This document shows positions 1 to 64,000 of a stretch of DNA of 64,000 bases, piece by piece. The notes beneath the pieces were generated by a model, which saw only the letters and a list, made by a program, of their open reading frames with translations, made no database searches and was not told the DNA's origin. Source of the DNA: Eledone cirrhosa (Eukaryota); NCBI GenBank assembly GCA_964016885.1, contig CAXHJY010000239.1:1-64000 (forward strand), written 5' to 3'. How positions within the stretch are numbered: position 1 is the first letter of the stretch; each line of letters opens with the position of its first letter. A program made the translations under genes and the position numbers.

Positions 1-30
1 ATATATAGTATATATATATATACTATATAT

Positions 31-2436
31 ATCATCATCATCATCATCAACGTTTAACGTCCGTGTTCCACGCTTGCATGGGTTTGGACGGGGGTAGTCC
101 CACTTGAGGCAGGAGTGATTGTCTTGCTCGCATAGGACTGTCTGGCAGGTTTTCTACAGTTGGATGCCCTTCCTAACACCAACCACATTTACAGTGTGGG
201 TCTGGGAGGTTTTTACCGTGTTGCCTACACGGCCACATTACAGCGTGGACTGTGTGTTTTTTGTCGTGACACCTACACGATCTCATTTGTTTCGGCCTCG
301 ATGGCGCGGCACCAACATAACTTTACATAGAACGGGGTGGTGTGGATCGGGTGGGGGTGGTGGTGGTGGGACGGGGTGTATTTTGTTAGAGATGCCTACT
401 GGCTGGAGTAGGTTTTACTATATATTTAGGTAAGGCGGGTCTTCTCTGTTACTGAGTACCGCCAAAGGTCTCGGTCCAGTGACATTGTCTTGGAGAGGTG
501 TAAGTGTGTGATGTCGGAGTTTATCAGCTCGTCCCAGGTTTTTCTAGGTCTGCCTATTCCGTGACTACCGTCTATCTTTATTGCCCTGCACTTTGTTATA
601 CAGCTATCGACTTTCATGCGCATCACGTGTCCATACCAACGTAGCCTTCTCTCGAGTAAACAACATCTGATCCCTCTTATCTCTAATTTTTTTCCTTAGT
701 TCGTTTATGCTTTGCCGTTCACGTATATTACTGTTACACATCCAGCGGAGCATGCAAGCTTCGTTCCTCTCTAGTCTGCGTATATCCTCTGCACACAATG
801 CCCAGGTCTCACTGCCATGCAGCATTGCTGTTCGTATGCAGGCATCGTACAACCTGCCTTTCATTTTTAGTGAGAACCCTTTAGCAGCTAATAGTGGTAT
901 AAGCTCTCTGAACTTTTTCCAACCAGTTCTGACTCTAGCTACAGTACTTTCAGAGCACCCTCCCCCACTGCTGATTTTATCGCCCAGGTAACGGAAGCTG
1001 TCCACTATTTCTATAGAACCCTCTGCGCAATTGAAAGAGCTAGTAGTTTGTGGGCACTTGCTGCTACTTATTGCACCAGAGCACCGGCCACATGTAAAAT
1101 CTATGTTCTTAGTTAGCTTACCTGTGATCCCACTACATCTTTTATGCACCCATACTTTGCATTTAGGACATAAAATGGAGTTTCTACCTACGCCTTTCCT
1201 ACACACCGAGCACGACCATTTCCCAGAAGGGACCGCCGCCTTGTTTTCTTTCCTACTAACTAGTACTTTGGTCTTAGCCAGGTTAATTTTAAGTCCTTTT
1301 GACTCTAGGCCGTGCTTCCATGTTTGGAATTTCTTCTCTAGCTCGGCCATTGATTCCGCTATGAGTGTCAGGTCGTCTGCGTATAGGAGTTCCCATGGGC
1401 AGCCTGTCTTGAACTCCTCTGTTATAGCCTGAAGGGCAATAATAAATAGTAGTGGGCTGAGAACAGAGCCCTGATGGACGCCAACTTTTACGCTAAACTC
1501 TTCACTATATTCGTTGTTAATTCTAACCTTGCTGACTGTTTCTTTATACATGGCTTGTATAGCCCTCACAAGCCATTCGTCAACGCCTAGTTTTCTAAGA
1601 GCCCACCAGATAATGGAGCGGGGGACTCTGTCGAAGGCTTTCTCCAAGTCGACAAAAGCTAAGTAGAGGGGTTTACCTTTAGCTAGGTACTTCTCCTGTA
1701 GTTGTCGTACTATGAAAAGAGCGTCTGTGGTACTTTTGCCTGACACAAACCCGAACTGCATTTCATCTAGGTCAATTCTCTCTCTGATTAGTTGCGCTAT
1801 TACTTTTTCCGTGACCTTCATGACCTGGTCGATTAATTTAATGCCTCTATAGTTACTCCTATCTAGGGCGTCTCCTTTACCCTTATAACAGTTAACGATG
1901 ATGCTGCTATGCCAGTCCTTCGGAACAACCCCATTCTGTACGACTTGGTTAACTATGCGGGTGACCATGGTGTGTCCCACCGTGCCAGATGCCTTCAGCA
2001 TCTCAGCAACTATTTCCGAAGGCCCAGCCGCCTTACCCGTCTTCATATCCTTGATTGCCTTACTTATTATACTCCCCTCGACTAACACTGCTGGTCCCTC
2101 TATTGGGTCGGTATGGGGGAGACTGCCTTTCTCCCAATTATTCTCCTCATTTAGTAGCCTTTCATAGTGACACTTCCAAGCTACCTTCTTATCAGAGTCG
2201 GTGATGGCAAGTGTGCCATCGTCGTTTAGTACACACTTCTCCCCGACAATATCACGGTTTTCCTTGACGCATTGCCTAGCAATCCTGAACACCTCACGTT
2301 TTTGGTCATCGCGTTGTAGAACATGCTTGAACTTTCTTTCCTCAGCTTCCCTTCTTGCTAAGTACACTTGTCTCCTAGCTTCCCTCCTGGCCACTTGATA
2401 GTCCTCTCTACTTCCCCCATCCCGCCATACTTTCCA
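31..2436 (-). mobile_element. RTE-clade LINE, 5'-truncated young copy with 3' UTR and (GAT)n tail, inserted in (TA)n
   Basis: Near-identical reverse complement of 32058-34465; RT motifs (NYRGIKL, QFGF, FVDLEKAFD, GVHQGS, YADD, RYLG); (ATC)n at 31-48 is the tail. Confidence 0.95.
426..2436 (-). pseudogene. Truncated, frameshifted RT ORF of the RTE copy
   Basis: ORFs 604..2394 and 426..626 join after a +1 frameshift: T7 at 687-693 versus A6 at 33801-33806 in the long copy. APE domain absent. Confidence 0.9.
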
Positions 2437-2736
2437 TATATATACTATATATATACATACTATATATATACTATATATATATAAATACTATATATATATA
2501 TATATACTATATATATATACTATATATATATACTATATATATATACTATATATATATATACTATATATATATATACTATATATATATATACTATATATAT
2601 ATATACTATATATATATATACTATATATATACATACTATATATATACTATATATATATATACTATATATATATATACTATATATATATATACTATATATA
2701 TATACTATATATATATACTATATATACTATATATAT
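2437..2736. repeat. Compound (TA)n microsatellite with periodic TAC interruptions
   Basis: Read directly from the sequence. Confidence 0.95.
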
Positions 2737-4107: not shown

Positions 4108-4594
4108 TATATATATATATTTATATATACTATATATATATATTTATATATACTATATATATGTACTATATATATATATATGTACTATATATATATATTT
4201 ATATATACTATATATATATATTTATTTATACTATATATATATATTTATATATACTATATATATATATTTATATATACTATATATATATATTTATATATAC
4301 TATATATATATATATATATGTACTATATATATATATTTATATATACTATATATATATATTTATATATACTATATACATATATATATATATGTACTATATA
4401 TATATATTTATATATACTATATATACATATATATATATATATGTACTATATATATATTTATATATACTATATATATATATATATATTTATATATACTATA
4501 TATATATATATATATTTATATATACTATATATATATATATATATTTATATATACTATATATATATATATATTTATATATACTATATATATATAT
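3693..4594. repeat. Long compound (TA)n tract, unit approximately TTTATATATAC(TA)n
   Basis: Read directly from the sequence. Confidence 0.95.
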
Positions 4595-15067: not shown

Positions 15068-15952
15068 CGAGGTGTGTCAGAAAAGTTCCAGGACTGATGT
15101 CACAAAAGATTTATTTCAAACCCAAACTTCACACTAAGAGTTTTCTCCTTCAAAGTAATCCCCCTGGAGTATGTAACCTTAATCTTAGCTCTCTGCAGCG
15201 ATCAAACTTTTTTCTTCATAATTTTATATACATGTCCTCTGTTTCAGGTCGTCAAGCAATGAGCACAGGGCAACGAACAAACTTAAAGTTTCTGGTACGG
15301 TTAGGGAAAACTCCATCAGAAGCACTGGGATTTCTGCAGCAAGTGTATTGAGATGAGACGATGTCTTGCTCACGTGTTTTTGAGTGGTGCAAGATGACCC
15401 CAGGAGCGGAAGGCCCTCAACAACCAGGACTGAGGTCAACGTTGAGCGCGTCAGACAGATGGTGCATAGCGATCGTCGGCTGACTGTTCGACTGATGTCA
15501 AATGAGCTGAGCATGAATCAGGACAGTGTTTGGAAGATTCTCACTGAAGATTTGGACATGCGGAAAGTCTGCGTGAAGATGGTGCCAAAACTGCTAAACA
15601 ATGACCAGAAGGGTCGACGCATGCAAGTGTGCCAGGACATCCTCAAGCATCTTGAAACCGAACCAGACTTGCTAGGGACAGTCATCACTGGTGATGAGTC
15701 ATGGATCTTCGAGTACGACCCAGAGGGGACCCGTTTTGAAGACATGGATGACATCAAAAAGGCCGTGACGACGGAACTGTGGAGGATCCCGGAAGAATCC
15801 TTCCAGGAGTTCATGCAAGCGCGGCAGAAAAGGATGGAAAAGTGCATTAGACTCCAGGGGATTACTTTGAGGGAGAAAACTCTAAGTGTGAAGTTTGGGT
15901 TTGAAATAAATCTTTTGTGACATCAGTCCTGGAACTTTTCTGGCACACCTCA
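15068..15952 (+). mobile_element. Mariner transposon, internally deleted and non-autonomous, ~100-bp TIRs, TA target duplication
   Basis: DDPRSGRP, MVPKLL, ITGDESWIFEYDPE fused directly to GTRFED...KCIRLQG; TIR CGAGGTGTGTCAGAAAAGTTCC; premature stop and frameshifts. Confidence 0.92.
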
Positions 15953-16843: not shown

Positions 16844-17522
16844 TTTAGACAATGAACTAATCAAACAAAGTTTCTGTGATCAAATATAATATATTATTAT
16901 TTCAAAGAAAATCAGCTTTCAAATTCTTTTGTTTATACTATGCCATGGTCCAACAACAACAACAATAAAACAACAGTGGAGAAATAAAGCCTGCTTGGTT
17001 GTTTTCCCTCCAAATCCTCAACACAATGTCATTACCAGTATAATGCTGTTGCTAGCTTATTGATTTATTTTTCTTCTTCTTCTTCATAAATTTATATCTG
17101 AAATATACTGGTTAGCTAAAGTAGAAAATCATTTGGCTGAAAGAACAAAGAGATTCAAAGTTTGACCACATATTGTATCTGTTTAGTCTGAGAGAATAAT
17201 CAACCATAATGATATGCCACATGTTTTTGTGTGTATATATAGATGCATACATACACACATATATACATATATATGTATGAGGTGTCCCCCCCAAAATGCA
17301 TTAAAATAAATTCTGTTTTATATGCATTATTTAAATTGTGGATTGGCAGTATCGGTAGAGAGTCGGACACCATGCTTTGAAGCATAGAGTTACGTCCCTT
17401 TATGATCTGAGTTCAAATCCCGCCGAGGTTAACTTTGCCTTTCATCCTTACGGGGTCGATAAAATAAAGTACCAGTAATGTACTGGGTAATTGCATACAT
17501 ACATACACACACATATATAAAA

Positions 17523-17835
17523 GCACATAGCTTAGTGATTAGAGTGTTAGGCTTGCAATTGTGAAGTTGTGAGTTCAATTACAGGACCACGTGATGCATT
17601 CTTTCCTTGAGCAAGACATTTCATTTCACATTGCTCCAGTTTACTCAGCTGTAGAAATGAGTTATGATGTCACTGGTGCCAAGCTGTATTGGATATTGTC
17701 TTCCCTTGGACAACATTAGTGGCATGGAAAGGAGAGTCTGGTCTTCCACAAACAACCTTGCCCAGACTTGTACCTCAAAGGTGAACTTTCAAGGTGCAAA
17801 TCCCATGGTCATTCGTGACTGAAGGGGATCTTTCA
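17523..17835 (+). mobile_element. Second tRNA-derived SINE family
   Basis: TAGCTTAGTGATTAG A-box, GAGTTCAATT B-box, TCCTTGAGCAAGACA body; degraded inverted copy near 43640-43830. Confidence 0.65.
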
Positions 17836-17861
17836 TATTATATATAAATATATATATATAT

Positions 17862-18232
17862 ATTATATACATTGGACGGATAGGTGTCCTCATCTTGTTT
17901 TGTTGTTGACACAACGTTTCGGCTGATGTACTCTCCAGCCTTCATCAGGTGTCCTAGTGATGTTATTATTAACATTTGTTCAGGTCACTGCCTAGAATTG
18001 TACTTGGAATCTTGAGGTTAGTAGCTCGCTTTTTAACCACTTTTTTTTTTTTTTAAATATTTAATTCCAGGCAGTGACCTGAACAAATGTTAATAATAAC
18101 ATCACTGGGACACCTGATGAAGGCTGGAGAGTACATCAGCCGAAACGTGTCAACAACAAAACAAGATGAAGACACCTATCCGTCCAATGTATATAATGTA
18201 AATAATTCCTCGTCTCAAAAATATAGAACAGT
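17862..18232. mobile_element. HHR-containing short retroelement in inverted arrangement, with tRNA-like head
   Basis: 17862-17999 inverted against 18063-18197; extra tail 18198-18232; (TA)n flanks. Confidence 0.75.
17908..17953 (-). ncRNA. Minimal type I hammerhead ribozyme motif
   Basis: GACAC-CUGAUGA-A-GGCUG(GAGAGUACAU)CAGCC-GAAAC-GUU-GUGUC: complete core, stems I and II pair, palindromic stem III (ACGU). Confidence 0.8.
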
Positions 18233-18370
18233 AATATATATATTGATAATCGCCACTGACGAACACAAGAAAGTTCTCGAGGAAGTTAACCGGGATTTTT
18301 AAGAAAAACTTCCCACCGAACTTAACAAAGAACTTACTAGATCTACATAGCAAAATTGTAAAATTGTAAT

Positions 18371-29685: not shown

Positions 29686-30920
29686 TTAAACCTGATACTC
29701 AGTTGTTCTCTGCTATAGGCAAAGCAGTAGTCTATCATACTCCATTTTCTTGGCAGAAGTACAGTTAAATATAAGGTAAGAGAGGATTGTATGTATGAAC
29801 TCATGACTTCCAATGGGGTGGAGTTGTAGGGGTGCCATAGTAGCATACAGCATGTCTTGGGGCATTTAAAACTTGATGGAGCCCATCCCTATCCAGGTTT
29901 TAACATGGTCTATTTCTTCCAGAGAAGGAGAGAGAGAATTGACCCAGTACTGGACTGGTACTTTTTATTGACCCCGAAAGGATGACAGGCAAAGTTAATT
30001 TGGAGTGTAGAGAGTTAGAATGAATATCACAAAACATTGTGATATAGGATTATCATATTTTATTTTAAAGTATTTAATTGTCCCGTGACTCCTGATAGAG
30101 TCGTAGGGGCGCCGTATTGACACACAGCATTTCTTAGGCATCTTAAGCCTGGCGGAGCCCATCCTTCTCCAGGCCTGAGTACAGCAGATTTCTTCCAGAG
30201 AAAGATAGAAAGCGGGAGAGAGGAAATAAGAGAGCAATATAGCGGAAGAATCAACCCCAGTACTAGACTGGTATTTCTTTTATCAACCTCGAAAGGATGA
30301 AAGGCTAAGTTGACCTCTGCAGGATTTAAACTCAGAGAGCAGAGAGTCAGAATGAATACCATAAAGCATTCTATCTGACATTTTAATGACTCTGCCAATT
30401 TGCCGCCTGTTTTATATATCAGTACTCTTGACACATTCTATTCTCTACTAAATACAATGAATCAGTCAACAATGTTAAAATTAGTTCTCTGCTGAAAAGA
30501 TAATTCATATCTATGAATTTTTTTTTTTCCTCGGCAGAAAACCACTTGTAATAATGTGACTAAAAGAACTATAGTTGATTACTTCCACCATATTATATTA
30601 CTGGTATTACAATATTCATAAAAGGATGAAAGGCAAATTCTTCTCTTAAACAGGATTTGAATAAAGATATGAGGCATGTGAATAGAGTCTCAGAACATCT
30701 GTTACCCTCTCTCTTTCCCTCATACACATTATATCTTATATTTCCCTCTCTCTCTTCTTCTCTCACTCACCCCCTCTATCTCTCTCTCTCTCTATATATA
30801 TATATGTGTGTGTGTGTGTGTATCTGTTTATGTTCTGTAACTTAGTGGCTCAACAAAATCGAGATCAATAAAATAAGTCCTAGACTTAAAATCAGTAAAA
30901 GAAAAAAATATATATATATA

Positions 30921-33900
30921 TCTCTTGGACGAGAATGCGAGCACTCCTCATTGTTTCGACCGCGGACGGCTAACATAACCCCATCGCCCCGCGCCCCCCA
31001 CCGCCCCCAACCCCCAAACGCAATCCAAAACTTCAGAGTTGGTACCATAAATGTAGGCACCCTAAAGGGTCGCGCTAACGAGGTTGTAGAAATGCTTGAA
31101 CGTAAGGAAATCGATGTTTGTTGTATTCAAGAGACCAGGTGGAGGGGTGGGTCTGCTAGGTTCATTGAGGGTAAAAAACGATGTTATAAGCTTTTCGGGG
31201 TGGGAAACGACGATGGGCTGGGTGGAGTAGGAATCATGGTAGCAGAAAAGTGGGCAGATAAGATAATAGACGTAAATAGAGTGAACGACAGAATAATTAA
31301 AATACGACTTGTCCTCAATAGAACTACGGTGACAGTAATATCTGCGTACGCACCCCAATCCGGACTGCCCGGCACTATAAAAGACAGATTCTATGAGACA
31401 CTGATGCTAACTACCTCCCAAATATCCGACAGTGACTATATAATTATCGCAGGCGACCTAAATGGTCACGTTGGACAACATTGTGACGGCTACGACGAAA
31501 CCCATGGAGGCTATGGGTTTGGTACGAGAAATGAGGAAGGCTCCAGAATCCTGGAATTCTGTGATGCAAATAACCTAACTATCTGTAACACTAACTTCAA
31601 AAAACGTGACAATCACCTGATCACCTATAGATCCGGGGAACATACAAGCCAGGTAGATTATATCCTTACCAGAAGACGTGACAGAGTGTCTGTTGTAAAC
31701 ACTAAATCCCTCCCCCATGAAGAATGCACCTCCCAACATAGACTGATAATTAGCGACCTCATAGTCAGGACGAGACGTACTCGACAGCAGAAGAGGACTA
31801 TCCTCAGGAGAAAAATATGGAAGCTAAAGGACCCCACAGCCAGGAATAAATTTCAAAGCATATTACTTGATGCTTTCGACAGTAAGGAAGAACATTTAGA
31901 GTCGGACAATATAGAGGGAGAGTGGGAATTTCTGAAAGCAAACCTGCTGTTGGCGACAGACGAAGTCTGTGGCCGGAGCAGGCCTGTAGGCAGGAGGAGA
32001 GTAACATGGTGGTGGAACAGTAAAGTGGAGGGGTCAATTAAGGCCAAAAAGCAGGCTTGGAAAGTATGGCGGGATGGGGGAAGTAGAGAAGACTATCAAG
32101 TGGCCAGGAGGGAAGCTAGGAGACAAGTGTACTTAGCAAGAAGGGAAGCTGAGGAAAGAAAGTTCAAGCATGTTCTACAACGCGATGACCAAAAACGTGA
32201 GGTGTTCAGGATTGCTAGGCAATGCGTCAAGGAAAACCGTGATATTGTCGGGGAGAAGTGTGTACTAAACGACGATGGCACACTTGCCATCACCGACGCT
32301 GATAAGAAGGTAGCTTGGAAGTGTCACTATGAAAGGCTACTAAATGAGGAGAATAAATGGGAGAAAGACAGTCTCCCCCATATCGACCCAATAGAGGGAC
32401 CAGCAGTGTTAGTCGAGGGGAGTATAATAAGTAAGGCAATCAAGGATATGAAGACGGGTAAGGCGGCTGGGCCTTCGGAAATAGTTGCTGAGATGCTGAA
32501 GGCATCTGGCACGGTGGGACACACCATGGTCACCCGCATAGTTAACCAAGTCGTACAGAATGGGGTTGTTCCGAAGGACTGGCATAGCAGCATCATCGTT
32601 AACTGTTATAAGGGTAAAGGAGACGCCCTAGATAGGAGTAACTATAGAGGCATTAAATTAATCGACCAGGTCATGAAGGTCACGGAAAAAGTAATAGCGC
32701 AACTAATCAGAGAGAGAATTGACCTAGATGAAATGCAGTTCGGGTTTGTGTCAGGCAAAAGTACCACAGACGCTCTTTTCATAGTACGACAACTACAGGA
32801 GAAGTACCTAGCTAAAGGTAAACCCCTCTACTTATCTTTTGTCGACTTGGAGAAAGCCTTCGACAGAGTCCCCCGCTCCATTATCTGGTGGGCTCTTAGA
32901 AAACTAGGCGTTGACGAATGGCTTGTGAGGGCTATACAAGCCATGTATAAAGAAACAGTCAGCAAGGTTAGAATTAACAACGAATATAGTGAAGAGTTTA
33001 GCGTAAAAGTTGCCGTCCATCAGGGCTCTGTTCTCAGCCCCCTACTATTTATTATTGCCCTTCAGGCTATAACAGAGGAGTTCAAGACAGGCTGCCCATG
33101 GGAACTCCTATACGCAGACGACCTGACACTCATAGCGGAATCAATGGCCGAGCTAGAGAAGAAATTCCAAACATGGAAGCACGGCCTAGAGTCAAAAGGA
33201 CTTAAAATTAACCTGGCTAAGACCAAAGTACTAGTTTGTAGGAAAGAAAACAAGGCGGCGGTCCCTTCTGGGAAATGGTCGTGCTCGGTGTGTAGGAAAG
33301 GCGTAGGTAGAAACTCCATTTTATGTCCTAAATGCAAAGTATGGGTGCATAAAAGATGTAGTGGGATCACAGGTAAGCTAACTAAGAACATAGATTTTAC
33401 ATGTGGCCGGTGTTCTGGTGCAATAAGTAGCAGCAAGTGCCCACAAAATACTAGCTCTTTCAATTGCGCAGAGGGTTCTATAGAAATAGTGGACAGCTTC
33501 CGTTACCTGGGCGATAAAATCAGCAGTGGGGGAGGGTGTTCTGAAAGTACTGTAGCTAGAGTCAGAACTGGTTGGAAAAAGTTCAGAGAGCTTATACCAC
33601 TATTAGCTGCTAAAGGGTTCTCCCTAAAAATGAAAGGCAGGTTGTACGATGCCTGCATACGAACAGCAATGCTGCATGGCAGTGAGACCTGGGCATTGTG
33701 TGCAGAGGATATACGCAGACTAGAGAGGAATGAAGCTTGCATGCTCCGCTGGATGTGTAACAGTAATATACGTGAACGGCAAAGCATAAACGAACTAAGG
33801 AAAAAATTAGAGATAAGAGGGATCAGATGTTGTTTACTCGAGAGAAGGCTACGTTGGTATGGACACGTGATACGCATGAAAGTCGATAGCTGTATAACAA

Positions 33901-34465
33901 AGTGCAGGGCAATAAAGATAGACGGTAGTCACGGAATAGGCAGACCTAGAAAAACCTGGGACGAGCTGATAAACTCCGACATCACACACTTACACCTCTC
34001 CAAGACAATGTCACTGGACCGAGACCTTTGGCGGTACTCAGTAACAGAGAAGACCCGCCTTACCTAAATATATAGTAAAACCTACTCCAGCCAGTAGGCA
34101 TCTCTAACAAAATACACCCCCCGTCCCACCACCACCACCCCCACCCCATCCACACCACCCCGTTCTATGTAAAGTTATGTTGGTGCCGCGCCATCGAGGC
34201 CGAAACAAATGAGATCGTGTAGGTGTCACGACAAAAAAACACACAGTCCACGCTGTAATGTGGCCGTGTAGGCAACACGGTAAAAACCTCCCAGACCCAC
34301 ACTGTAAATGTGGTTGGTGTTAGGAAGGGCATCCAACTGTAGAAAACCTGCCAGACAGTCCTATGCGAGCAAGACAATCACTCTTGCCTCAAGTGGGACT
34401 ACCCCCGTCCAAACCCATGCAAGCGTGGAACACGGACGTTAAACGTTGATGATGATGATGATGAT
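30921..34465 (+). mobile_element. Near-full-length young RTE-clade LINE in (TA)n
   Basis: Single long ORF, ~400-bp 3' UTR, (GAT)n tail, TA tracts on both sides. Confidence 0.97.
30951..34067 (+). CDS. RTE ORF: APE endonuclease, reverse transcriptase and internal PHD-type zinc finger
   Basis: APE motifs TINVGTL, CIQETRW, SAYAPQ, GDLNGHVG, QVDYIL, SQHR; RT motifs including YADD at 33111; C4HC3 at 33282-33413. Start codon uncertain (no ATG before the APE domain). Confidence 0.93.
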   Translation: MFRPRTANITPSPRAPHRPQPPNAIQNFRVGTINVGTLKGRANEVVEMLERKEIDVCCIQETRWRGGSARFIEGKKRCYKLFGVGNDDGLGGVGIMVAEKWADKIIDVNRVNDRIIKIRLVLNRTTVTVISAYAPQSGLPGTIKDRFYETLMLTTSQISDSDYIIIAGDLNGHVGQHCDGYDETHGGYGFGTRNEEGSRILEFCDANNLTICNTNFKKRDNHLITYRSGEHTSQVDYILTRRRDRVSVVNTKSLPHEECTSQHRLIISDLIVRTRRTRQQKRTILRRKIWKLKDPTARNKFQSILLDAFDSKEEHLESDNIEGEWEFLKANLLLATDEVCGRSRPVGRRRVTWWWNSKVEGSIKAKKQAWKVWRDGGSREDYQVARREARRQVYLARREAEERKFKHVLQRDDQKREVFRIARQCVKENRDIVGEKCVLNDDGTLAITDADKKVAWKCHYERLLNEENKWEKDSLPHIDPIEGPAVLVEGSIISKAIKDMKTGKAAGPSEIVAEMLKASGTVGHTMVTRIVNQVVQNGVVPKDWHSSIIVNCYKGKGDALDRSNYRGIKLIDQVMKVTEKVIAQLIRERIDLDEMQFGFVSGKSTTDALFIVRQLQEKYLAKGKPLYLSFVDLEKAFDRVPRSIIWWALRKLGVDEWLVRAIQAMYKETVSKVRINNEYSEEFSVKVAVHQGSVLSPLLFIIALQAITEEFKTGCPWELLYADDLTLIAESMAELEKKFQTWKHGLESKGLKINLAKTKVLVCRKENKAAVPSGKWSCSVCRKGVGRNSILCPKCKVWVHKRCSGITGKLTKNIDFTCGRCSGAISSSKCPQNTSSFNCAEGSIEIVDSFRYLGDKISSGGGCSESTVARVRTGWKKFRELIPLLAAKGFSLKMKGRLYDACIRTAMLHGSETWALCAEDIRRLERNEACMLRWMCNSNIRERQSINELRKKLEIRGIRCCLLERRLRWYGHVIRMKVDSCITKCRAIKIDGSHGIGRPRKTWDELINSDITHLHLSKTMSLDRDLWRYSVTEKTRLT

Positions 34466-58194: not shown

Positions 58195-58437
58195 CAATGG
58201 ACAAATGCATGAATAGAAAGAACTCATGAAAATGTAGGAAAATATTACACAACAGGATGAAATACCATAACTCAGATTACATTACTGCTGATTAACTACA
58301 ACCTTCCCTCACAATTGAGTAGAACTTGGTAGTATCTAACATGCATTCGATAAAGATTGTAAGTACCCATGAGTTGCAAGAAGACATAGATGCCATCTCG
58401 TCTCACCAAATATTGATCTTGTAGAACATCCAGGATG

Positions 58438-61400
58438 TGATATTGTTGATACAATATTGTTATGACATTGTTGGTATGACATAGTTACTGTGACATTTTT
58501 ATGACATTGTTGGTATGACATTGTTGATATGACATTGTTGGTATGACATTGTTACTGTGACATTGTTGTTATGACATTGTTGGTATGACATTGTTGAGAT
58601 GACATTGTTGGTATGGCATTGTTGTTATGACATTGTTGGTATGACATTGTTCATATGACATTGTTGGTATGACATTGTTGGTATCACATTTGTTGTATGA
58701 CATTGTTGGTATGACATTGTTACTGTGACATTGTTATGACATTGTTGGTATGACATTGTTGAGATGACATTATGGTATGGCATTGTTATGACATTGTTGG
58801 TATGACATTGTTGGTATGACATTGTTGAGATGACATTGTTGGTATGACATTGTTGAGATGACATTGTTGGTATGACATTGTTGAGATGACATTGTTAATG
58901 TGACATTGTTGGTATGACACTGTTAGTATGACATTGTTGGCATGACATTGTTGGTATGACATTGTTGGTATGACATTGTTGGTATGACATTGTTGGTATG
59001 ACATTGTTGGTATGACATTGTTGTTATGACATTGTTGGTATGACATTGTTGAGATGACATTGTTGGTATGACATTGTTGAGATGACATTGTTAATGTGAC
59101 ATTGTTGGTATGACACTGTTAGTATGACATTGTTGGCATGACATTGTTGGTATGACATTGTTGGTATGACATTGTTGTTATGACATTGTTGGTATGACAT
59201 TGTTGGTATGACATTGTTGGTATGACATTGTTGGTATGACATTGTTGGTATGACATTGTTGGTATGACATTGTTAATGTGACATTGTTGGTATGACACTG
59301 TTAGTATGACATTGTTGGCATGACATTGTTGGCATGACATTGTTGGTATGACATTGTTGGTATGACATTGTTGGTATGACATTGTTGGTATGACATTGTT
59401 GGTATGACATTGTTGAGATGACATTGTTGGTATGACATTGTTGAGATGACATTGTTAATGTGACATTGTTGGTATGACACTGTTAGTATGACATTGTTGG
59501 CATGACATTGTTGGCATGACATTGTTGGTATGACATTGTTGGTATGACATTGTTGGTATGACATTGTTGTTATGACATTGTTGAGATGACATTGTTGAGA
59601 TGACATTGTTGAGATGACATTGTTGGTATGACATTGTTGGTATGACATTGTTGTTATGACATTGTTGGTATGACATTGTTGTATGACATTCTTGTATGAC
59701 ATTGTTGGTATGACATTGTTCATATGACATTGTTTATATGACATTGTTGGTATGACATTGTTCATATGACATTGTTTATATGACATTGTTGGTATGACAT
59801 TGTTGGTATGACATTGTTGAGATGACATTGTTGAGATGACATTGTTGAGATGACATTGTTAATGTGACATTGTTGGTATGACACTGTTAGTATGACATCG
59901 TTGGCATGACATTGTTGGTATGACATTGTTGGTATGACATTGTTGGTATGACATTGTTGGTATGACATTGTTGTATGACATTCTTGTATGACATTGTTGG
60001 TATGACATTGTTCATATGACATTGTTTATATGACATTGTTGGTATGACATTGTTCATATGACATTGTTTATATGACATTGTTGGTATGACATTGTTGGTA
60101 TGACATTGTTGGTATGACACTGTTATGACACTGTTGTTATGATATTGTTAGTATGATATTGTTGATATGGCATTGTTGATATGACATTGTTTGTATGACA
60201 TTGTTACTGTGACATTGTTGGTATGACATTGTTGGTATGACATTGTTACTGTGACATTGTTGAGATGACATTGTTGATATGACATTGTTGGTATGACATT
60301 GTTGGTATGACATTGTTGGTATGACCTTGTTCTTATGACATTGCTAGTATGACATTGTTGGTATGACATTGTTGGCATGACATTGTTGGTATGACATTGT
60401 TGGTATGACATTGTTGGTATGACACTGTTAGTATGACATTGTTGGCATGACATTGTTGGCATGACATTGTTGGTATGACATTGTTGGTATGACATTGTTG
60501 GTATGACATTGTTGGTATGACATTGTTGGCATGACATTGTTGGTATGACATTGTTGGTATGACATTGTTGGTATGACCTTGTTCTTATGACATTGCTAGT
60601 ATGACATTGTTGGTATGACATTGTTGGCATGACATTGTTGGTATGACATTGTTGGTATGACATTGTTGGTATGACATTGTTGATATGACATTGTTGTTAT
60701 GACATTGTTGGTATGACATTGTTGGTATGACATTGTTGTTATGACATTGTTGGGATGACATTGTTGGTATGACATTGTTGGTATGACATTGTTGGTATGA
60801 CATTGTTGGTATGACATTGTTGGTATGACATTGTTGGTATGACATTGTTGATATGACATTGTTGGTATGACATTGTTGGTATGACATTGTTGGCATGACA
60901 TTGTTGGTATGACATTGTTGGTATGACATTGTTGTTATGACATTGTTGGTATGACATTGTTGGTATGACATTGTTGATATGACATTGTTGATATGACATT
61001 GTTGGTATGACATTGTTGATATGACATTGTTGGTATGACATTGTTGGTATGACATTGTTGTTATGACATTGTTGGTATGACATTGTTGGTATGACATTGT
61101 TGGCATGACATTGTTGGCATGACATTGTTGGCATGACATTGTTGGTATGACATTGTTGGTATGACATTGTTGGTATGACATTGTTGGTATGACATTGTTG
61201 ATATGACATTGTTGATATGACATTGTTGGTATGACATTGTTGGTATGACATTGTTGGTATGACATTGTTGGCATGACATTGTTGGCATGACATTGTTGGT
61301 ATGACATTGTTGGTATGACATTGTTGGTATGACCTTGTTCTTATGACATTGCTAGTATGACATTGTTGGTATGACATTGTTGGCATGACATTGTTGGTAT

Positions 61401-63477
61401 GGCATTGTTGATATGACATTGTTGGTATGACATTGTTGGTATGACATTGTTGGTATGACATTATTGGTATGACATTGTTGGTATGACATTGTTGATATGA
61501 CATTGTTGATATGACATTGTTGGTGTGACATTGTTACTGTGACATTGTTGTTATGACATTGTTGGTATGACATTGTTGGTATGACATTGTTACTGCGACA
61601 TTGTTACAGTGACATTGTTGTTATGACATTGTTGGTATGACATTGTTGGTATGACATTGTTGGTATGACATTGTTGGTTTGACATTGTTGGTATGAGAAG
61701 GTTGGTATGACATTGTTGGTATGACAATGTTACTGTGACATTGTTGGTATGACATTGTTAGTATGACACTGTTCATATGACATTATTCATATGACATTAT
61801 TGGTATGACATTGTTGGTATGATATTATGACATTGTTGTTATGACATTCTTGTTATGACATTGTTGTTATGACATTGTTAATGTGACATTGTTGGTATGA
61901 CATTGGTGGTATGACATTGTTATGACATTGTTGGTATGACATTGTTGGTATGACATTGTTGGTATGACATTGTTGATATGACATTGTTGATATGACATTG
62001 TTGGTATGACATTGTTGGTATGACATTGTTGGCATGACATTGTTGGCATGACATTGTTGGCATGACATTGTTGGTATGACATTGTTGGTATGACCTTGTT
62101 CTTATGACATTGCTAGTATGACATTGTTGGTATGACATTGTTGGCATGACATTGTTGGTATGACATTGTTGATATGACATTGTTGGTATGACATTGTTGG
62201 TATGACATTATTGGTATGACATTGTTGATATGACATTGTTGATATGACATTGTTGGTATGACATTGTTACTGTGACATTGTTGTTATGACATTGTTGGTA
62301 TGACATTGTTGGTATGACATTGTTGATATGACATTGTTGGTATGACATTGTTACTGTGACATTGTTACTGTGACATTGTTGTTATGACATTGTTGGTATG
62401 ACATTGTTGGTATGACATTGTTACTGTGACATTGTTATGACATTGTTGGTATGACATTGTTGGTATGACATTGTTGGTTTGACATTGTTGATTTGACATT
62501 GTTGGTATGAGAAGGTTGGTATGACATTGTTGGTATGACATTGTTACTGTGACATTGTTGGTATGACATTGTTAGTATGACACTGTTCATATGACATTAT
62601 TCATATGACATTATTGGTATGACATTGTTGGTATGACATTGTTGGTATGACATTGTTGGTATGACATTGTTGGTATGATATTATGACATTGTTGTTATGA
62701 CATTGTTGTTATGACATTGTTATGACATTGTTGTTATGACATTGTTGTTATGACATTGTTAATGTGACATTGTTGGTATGACATTGGTGGTATGACATTG
62801 TTATGACATTGTTGGTATCACATTGTTAGTATGACATTGTTAGTATGACATTGTTGGTATGACATTGTTAATGTGACATTGTTGGTATGACATTGTTGGT
62901 ATGACATTGTTGGTATGACATTGTTGGTATGACATTGGTAGTATGACATTGTTCGTATGACATTGTTGGTATGACATTGTTGGTATGACCTTGTTCTTAT
63001 GACATTGCTAGTATGACATTGTTGGTATGACATTGTTGGTATGACATTATTAATGTGATATTGTTGGTATGACATTGTTGGTATGACATTGTTCTTATGA
63101 CATTGGTAGTATGACATTGTTCGTATGACATTGTTGGTATGACATTGTTGGTATAACCTTGTTCTTATGACATTGCTAGTATGACATTGTTAGTATGACA
63201 TTGTTGGTATGACATTGTTGGTATAACATTATTAATGTGACATTGTTGGTATGACATTGTTCTTATGACATTGTTGGTATGACATTGTTGGTATAACCTT
63301 GTTCTTATGACATTGCTAGTATGACATTGTTGGTATGACATTGTTGGTATGACATTGTTGGTATAACATTATTAATGTGACATTGTTGGTATGACATTGT
63401 TCTTATGACATTGCTAGTATGGCATTGTTGGTATGACATTGTTGATATGATATTGTTGGTATGATATTGTTGGTGTG
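58438..63477. repeat. ~5-kb tandem array of the 14-bp unit ATGACATTGTTGGT (about 360 units by length)
   Basis: Read directly; the 14-aa periodic translations equal three units. Confidence 0.98.
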
Positions 63478-64000
63478 AAGTATTAGCAATATGGTGCCTA
63501 GTCTCATCGTGTCATCTTTTTTTATGATCTGATGTTTGTTAACTTGAACTCAGACCTGCTGGGCTAGAACAGATACCACAAGGTATACTGTCTGTTGCTT
63601 TAACAATTGTTCGAAGTTACCCCTCTGGACAATCTTAATGGCCTCTGAAAGGTACTTTGGTGGGATTTGTATTTAGAATGAAAAGTACTGGAATAAATAT
63701 TGGAAGGTATTTAATCTGTTGCTCTAATGACTCTGAAACTTTGCTTTTAGTTATTGTTGCTATTGTTTAGTCTTAGGTCAACCTTAATTAAGCAAATGAA
63801 TGACCAAAAGCTTTGCAGCAATGACCATTCCATCTTTTTAGGGAACTACATTAAATAATTTCCTAGTTTAAGAAGGCTAGGGTTTGATTTGAGTAGGATT
63901 TGACTGCTACTTCTAGCAGGTTGTGCAAGTATATAAATGTTCCCTTCTTGGTTTGCAGACTGTTTAGTTGTAATAGATGCTTACAAAGTCTATAAAACTA

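Follow-up and report, generated by a model that had tools for sequence, protein, structure and literature searches.

A hammerhead-bearing palindrome of Eledone cirrhosa as a highly probable inverted insertion of a Penelope-type retrotransposon with a tRNA-like stretch in its end repeat

The window, which is the whole stretch of 64,000 nucleotides from Eledone cirrhosa analysed here, contains at 17862-18231 a palindrome of about 370 bp, in which two arms are joined head to head and which is set in a (TA)n tract. Its parts are listed in Table 1. Arm 1 is 93% identical to the end repeat (pLTR) of a near-full-length copy of a Penelope-type element (PLE), designated L031. Arm 2 aligns with arm 1 along about 140 nt, apart from a 3-nt gap where the cut triplet of the hammerhead (HHR) lies, and continues into a further tail of about 34 nt; the variants C68T and T134C are common to both arms. 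On the minus arm, an AAT-rich spacer lies between the tRNA-like head and the HHR.

Table 1. Parts of the mirrored insertion and its flanks (positions in the window)
Feature	Position	Strand	Remarks
Arm 1, 5'-truncated PLE pLTR copy	17862..18041	-	3' UTR and first ORF codons; runs to the "short" 3' site, within (TA)n
tRNA/SINE-head-like stretch, probable relic	17991..18041	-	D-loop end, anticodon-loop-like CT-ACT-AA, variable region, T arm
B-box-like 9-mer, A replacing T55	17995..18003	-	Read against the general B-box consensus
Minimal type I hammerhead (HHR)	17908..17953	-	Predicted cut 17913/17912
Inversion junction	18041..18062	no strand	14-nt A run of the PLE 3' UTR (minus) and 8 filler bases
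Arm 2, pLTR copy, more strongly 5'-truncated, "long" 3' site	18063..18231	+	
Arm 2 hammerhead without the 3-nt cleavage triplet	18109..18151	+	In-frame loss of one codon; predicted inactive
PLE "tail", about 34 nt, between both 3' end sites	18198..18231	+	Codes for conserved N-terminal ORF residues
(TA)n target microsatellite, left flank	17836..17861	no strand	Read from the sequence
Shorter TA tract, right flank	18232-18244	no strand	Read from the sequence

An earlier note on this DNA had described the insertion as a tRNA-headed element with an HHR in each arm. The complete minimal HHR that it placed on the minus strand, with an extra A after CUGAUGA and a loop-less ACGU, is present in all its parts, and so is the mirror arm, in which 3 nt of the HHR are missing where the cut is predicted and the extra tail follows. 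The proposed layout therefore stands for these features, but not for the head: it is not carried by both arms, since the plus arm begins only within the T arm, and it does not mark the boundary of the element, since other copies extend upstream of it.

Elsewhere in the window, a LINE-like element at 30846-34064 (+) has an open frame of 1,073 aa, and a 99% identical, inverted and 5'-truncated copy is found at 24-2487 (-), 30 kb away; this activity is very recent. An open frame at 15384-15917 (+) resembles a transposase fragment, presumably of the mariner type, and a long minisatellite with a 14-nt period and stop-poor minus-strand frames occupies about 58350-64000.

The minus-strand HHR is composed of a 5-bp stem I, CUGAUGA (17948-17942), the extra A, a stem II of 5-6 bp, GAAA, the loop-less ACGU and the GUU triplet. 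A relaxed HHR descriptor gave this single match in the 64-kb window and none in all 20 of the block-shuffled windows. With Rfam, neither a hammerhead nor a tRNA match was obtained at E<=10 on 17800-18300 or at E<=1 across the window. The HHR core has 64 exact matches genome-wide, and in L031 the AUG within CUGAUGA (17945-17943 in the window) shares the reading frame of the PLE ORF. The earlier note had seen in the insertion its best candidate for an undescribed system; this did not hold: minimal HHRs with an extra nucleotide before stem II, arranged in opposite-strand pairs 100-700 bp apart, are already published for PLEs in the accessible part of PMC4209133, where minimal HHRs are also described as cleaving poorly in vitro. 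For PAc of Anolis, the accessible part of PMC11167929 describes an ORF that starts at its HHR, a cleavage that depends on protein and no RNA-seq reads ending at the cut. We take the present HHR as the standard minimal motif of its family, and its cutting is predicted to require dimerisation or the PLE protein; in the energy model, the double-hammerhead fold is not favoured (-23.9 versus 2 x -14.8 kcal/mol). Hammerhead-like motifs unrelated to the family were also seen at L004, L006, L042, L049, L056, L096 and L119, one of which recurs at three loci.

A genome search with the minus arm gave at least 45 matches (from 40 scored of 165 candidates), of which the near-full-length ones have 94-97% identity and many are divergent pairs. 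In most of the 30 loci examined, an A-rich linker lies upstream of the head and is preceded by the end of an endonuclease ORF. L031 is composed of an inverted pLTR and a pLTR-ORF-pLTR unit, with 2,546 nt from head to head (a unit of about 2.55 kb). Its broken ORF covers residues 14-803 of an 806-aa homologue (P0023) in four pieces with 62-88% identity, the first of which starts within the stretch that forms the extra tail in the window. The Pfam model RVT_1 was matched by P0001 (45.2 bits) and by a piece from L033 (31.2 bits, cut-off 29.6), and the piece from L031 reached 26.7 bits, which is under the cut-off. A PDB search gave weak group II intron-like RT matches only. The endonuclease is assigned to the GIY-YIG type by motif and homology, as Pfam gave no GIY-YIG match on the endonuclease pieces; in the alignment, two cysteines (CxC) stand between the GIY and YIG equivalents, a His pair follows later, giving a CCHH motif, and the CX2-5CxxC linker zinc finger is absent. 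With these features the element would fit the Penelope/Poseidon clade, a placement made by motif only with the criteria given in the accessible text of PMC8557442.

The family is small, with at least 126 arms and with 64, 66 and 58 exact matches to three patterns, and it may already be catalogued in Dfam or Repbase. Among the best genome matches, no copy with an intact ORF was found, and the longest open frame in the family has 459 aa. Contigs from four sequencing runs (guessed to be RNA) cover 24-29 of 30 bins of L031, which indicates the presence of relatives and not transcription, strand or ends; flanks of relatives in metagenome contigs could not be confirmed. Other PLE families of the same genome have 30-35% identity to P0001, and some have the linker finger. 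Such families were seen at L149-L153 and in further matches, with open frames of up to 1,096 aa from stop to stop and a linker zinc finger, and a simple pattern for the HHR core found none near the ends of the linker-finger families.

Two expectations of the earlier note were thus confirmed: an autonomous PLE with the same end sequence is found in the pLTR-ORF-pLTR arrangement of L031 and its homology to P0023, and the linkage of the repeat to an RT and GIY-YIG ORF supports Penelope-type machinery as the maker of the insertion. Since the same repeat flanks this ORF in other copies, the stretch in the window is not a separate SINE or retrozyme. The Pol III-transcribed, self-cleaving and non-autonomous element that had been proposed was not borne out, and the stretch corresponds to the 3' UTR/pLTR and ORF start of an autonomous PLE.

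The ends of the family were surveyed in 126 distinct HHR-spanning arms at the loci examined, with the tandem units of L084 and L096 left out. The 5' starts lie inside the head or HHR in 50 arms, at the A run or shortly before it in 21 (of which a few include linker bases), in the linker in 11 and in the ORF in 44; the corresponding numbers for the 83 arms found by exact patterns are 41, 12, 7 and 23, respectively. The 3' ends are short in 64 arms, long in 57 and of another kind in five, and one short end is combined with one long end in 33 of the 41 mirror pairs (p=6.5e-6 for the 39 pairs in which neither end is "other"). Most family ends adjoin TA tracts. When 15 further loci were drawn from the 64 HHR-core matches, all aligned to the pLTR of the known family. 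At L177 and L186, the two arms of the mirror pair meet at the palindromic stem III of the HHR or next to it, which is where pairing in a dimer would be expected.

With high confidence, we interpret the palindrome as two truncated end-repeat copies of a protein-coding Penelope/Poseidon-type retrotransposon, which stand head to head within a (TA)n tract and were likely placed there in one insertion. The linkage to the RT-EN ORF, the TA targets, the two 3' sites with one on each arm, and the private variants shared by both arms are all observed. An inverted, 5'-truncated PLE insertion is an already published structure: in the accessible text of PMC8557442, an inverted 5'-truncated copy with a tail of 30-40 bp at one end belongs to the PLE architecture, and in that of PMC11167929, PAc has two RT start sites inside the ORF start and a tail. 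By analogy with PAc, the protein of the element itself would nick both strands of AT-rich target DNA, reverse transcription would be primed at two internal sites about 35 nt apart just inside the ORF, both cDNAs would stop early, at lengths of about 180 and 170 nt, and they would be joined at the A run with filler. The palindrome might instead have arisen after insertion by a DNA-level fold-back duplication of one arm, to which the near identity of the arms and their shared private variants would correspond. However, the arms end at different family-wide 3' sites, the tail is on arm 2 and not on arm 1, and the pairing of a long with a short end recurs in most mirror pairs, so that a fold-back origin is scarcely credible. 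The reading as a PLE insertion has its own qualifications. The 21 arms starting at or just before the A run by the head are above what a flat truncation curve might give; moreover, the GIY-YIG assignment came without a Pfam match, the best genome matches hold no intact ORF, and the suggested clade depends on motifs.

The tRNA-like head was compared with 16 tRNA-model matches from the genome, and the best partners were three SINE heads (L048-L050). The head of the window copy is colinear with the head of a tRNA-derived SINE of the same genome, with 33 of 51 identities, and an equal score was obtained in 2 of 500 dinucleotide shuffles; the head of L002 has 35 of 51 identities with the same SINE, and none of 500 shuffles was as good. 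The score of the window copy (36.5) was reached by none of the 1,024 control windows taken from three PLE sequences, the best being 34-35.5. When 13 tRNA-gene-like sequences alone were used, 32 of 500 shuffles were as good as the window head. Where PLE heads, SINE heads and tRNAs share invariant positions, the spacing of these is that of tRNAs. Since the match with the SINE head beats the shuffles but the match with tRNA genes alone is weak and the controls come close, the resemblance to tRNA is probably real, if modest, and derived via a SINE.

The likeness claimed by the earlier note was thus upheld, and a working A/B promoter was not. The 5' half of the A box and the acceptor stem are absent from the window head. 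Among the 69 heads checked genome-wide, a full A box was found in none by the pattern used, and position 55 of the B box is A in 61 and T in 2, leaving the B box mismatched in 67; both boxes were read against their general consensus. ARAGORN, applied to four heads, gave no tRNA at thresholds of 95-80% and only opposite-strand calls at 70-60%. We consider it probable that the head is the relic of a captured SINE, likely a passenger and not a promoter; a template switch would have brought a piece of SINE into the 3' UTR on a single occasion, with the piece carried along thereafter. Such captures do happen, because at L010:1295-1322 on the minus strand, the 5' piece (A-box region) of the head of another SINE is fused to a family arm at an inversion junction, at the matching tRNA position; this chimera has one match genome-wide. 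The head was also considered as the final ORF codons; this was rejected, since the ORF stops upstream of the A-rich linker. Copies of two different tRNA-derived SINEs were seen just left of the palindrome (17520-17832 and 17335-17494), the first of which is of the kind resembling the PLE relic.

An independent, Pol III-transcribed SINE or retrozyme with a tRNA head and an HHR, mobilised by a PLE, would explain why tRNA-conserved positions are kept in register and why a group of arms starts near the A run beside the head, and a Pol III promoter is joined to an HHR in Schistosoma elements too, according to the accessible text of a review (PMC6765202). This origin is nevertheless highly improbable. 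The sequence is the pLTR of the autonomous element itself, the 5' ends are scattered, with more arms running into the ORF or starting inside the head or HHR than starting at the A run, half of the A box is missing in all 69 heads in addition to the mismatched B boxes, and the chimera with a SINE A box at L010 is single-copy. The lack of TTTT from head to tail, with a single TTTT in the 2.7-kb sense strand, might also be counted in its favour; as a sign of Pol III, however, T4 depletion was rejected, since one seen against 2.9 expected is not significant (22% of shuffles are as low) and T4 is low in other PLE families of the genome too.

The autonomous PLE might instead use the relic, as a domesticated piece of SINE, in the form of a TFIIIC-bound B box, an internal pLTR promoter or a tRNA-like processing signal. 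The T stem keeps four of five pairs, with bases differing from those of the SINE copies seen. In contigs of other organisms, moreover, a family with the same HHR and tail but a different upstream stretch has a B-box-like word directly before the HHR (30-letter loose ends at L031:6918-6924 and 4391-4398). Against such use, acceptor and D stems are missing, ARAGORN found no tRNA down to the 80% threshold, substitutions per position in the head look, by eye, no lower than in the rest of the pLTR, and the second HHR family was not found in this genome with three patterns. We therefore regard a function of the relic as unlikely.

An exact search found a deletion at the HHR cut site in three arms, versus 66 intact arms. 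For an unbiased count, 58 arms were collected by a pattern downstream of the cut site, and 56 were aligned after the window arm and one tandem array had been dropped. Deletions abutting the cut were present in nine of these, five with loss of the triplet, two with loss of 2 nt and two with loss of 5 nt, and three of the nine were judged by eye (L171 and L174, each as a deletion with CpG decay; L170, split in two). Compared with three events at 17 other sites with 2-3-nt microhomology, the nine events correspond to a 12.6-fold excess (p=4.5e-5). In seven pairs with a cut-site deletion the partner arm is intact, and in most pairs the two arms have private variants in common; one pair has a different cut-site deletion in each arm, and one arm has a 3-nt duplication at the cut site. 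Because the partners are intact, the deletions differ and one duplication exists, the deletions are recurrent and not inherited.

Both the excess over sites of like microhomology and this recurrence would be explained if the deletions were scars of hammerhead cleavage in vivo, where the RT, on arriving at the cut RNA end, jumps to the upstream fragment via 2-3-nt microhomology. We put this forward tentatively, as a possibility that on balance is doubtful. The site is a short GT-rich quasi-palindrome, and for nearby tandem triplets the per-site frequency of unit loss is about as high (TAA in four and AAC in five cases in the same 56 arms), so that the deletions possibly reflect a slippage hotspot. 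Cleavage scars are also disfavoured by the three events read by eye, by the lack of a pile-up of 5' ends at the cut (one of the 20 short arms listed), by the unfavoured double-hammerhead fold and by the PAc reads mentioned above, none of which ends at the cut in the accessible text of PMC11167929. If the deletions are scars, the PLE RT copied cut RNA and jumped the nick in about one arm in six. They would then provide a sequence-only readout of cutting by minimal HHRs during retrotransposition, applicable to any genome with a young PLE family, and the SINE head captured in that pLTR would be another outcome of this jumping habit.

Tandem HHR units were seen at two loci of the family. At L084:2910-3570 (C23, about 19253800-19254600), nine head-to-tail units of 65 nt, each with a whole HHR, are joined via an 8-nt pLTR repeat; this is a retrozyme-like micro-array within one arm of a family insertion. 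At L096:2880-3420 (C6, about 84802600-84803100), five HHR units of 73 nt have a variant alternating per unit, giving a higher-order period of 146 nt. Tandem copies, which the earlier note had proposed to look for, were found at these two loci only, and the window copy is an inverted pair. Although the element in the window is itself an ordinary PLE copy, the family bears on whether minimal hammerheads cut in vivo, for which cut-site scars, if true, would be an independent readout. It also bears on the origin of non-autonomous HHR elements, since it shows a probable relic of a SINE head, one fresh fusion with a SINE head and two tandem HHR micro-arrays. These represent raw steps on the way to retrozyme- or Sm-alpha-like elements, and none of them has spread.

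Comparison with known systems relies on the accessible parts of the papers cited. Schistosoma Sm-alpha (PMC6765202) likewise has a hammerhead with a tRNA-like, Pol III-type stretch upstream of it; in contrast, the stretch here is inside an autonomous element, its promoter boxes are broken, and the copies are not tandems of promoter and HHR. Animal non-LTR retrozymes (PMC7229834; bioRxiv 10.64898/2026.07.22.740005) share the type I HHR, the proposed mobilisation by PLEs and the proposed pLTR origin, and the two small tandem arrays are a further likeness to the family. The window copy differs from them in being an inverted pair and not a tandem of monomers of about 300 bp, and in having a minimal and not a canonical HHR; tandem non-coding HHR monomers, by which retrozymes are recognised, are not found in it. 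Nor does it have the characters of a tRNA-derived SINE, because A and B boxes are not intact and no 5' end is defined at the head independently of the ORF-bearing parent.

The accessible text of the bioRxiv paper contains no mention of tRNA or Pol III, and neither a tRNA-like stretch in a PLE pLTR nor cut-site deletions are described there or in that of PMC13282606, PMC6765202 and PMC7229834. In the open literature searched, no description of either was found. The tRNA/SINE-head-like stretch within the 3' UTR as well as the recurrent HHR cut-site deletions are the features by which the family would differ from canonical EN+ PLEs (PAc of Anolis, PMC11167929; PMC8557442). With these elements the family shares a single ORF for RT and for a GIY-YIG domain at the C terminus, pLTRs, an inverted 5'-truncated copy, a tail of 30-40 nt, two 3' sites in the ORF start, a start codon at the HHR, AT-rich targets and the absence of a linker zinc finger. 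Minimal HHRs of metazoan PLEs (PMC4209133) have the same palindromic stem III without a loop 3, the same short stem I and an additional nucleotide before stem II, and likewise occur in pairs on opposite strands 100-700 bp apart; by sequence nothing essential differs. The characters by which EN+ PLEs are recognised are thus all found in this family, namely, the linked RT-GIY-YIG ORF, the flanking pLTRs with an inverted copy (41 mirror pairs), the tail with two 3' sites and the minimal HHR.
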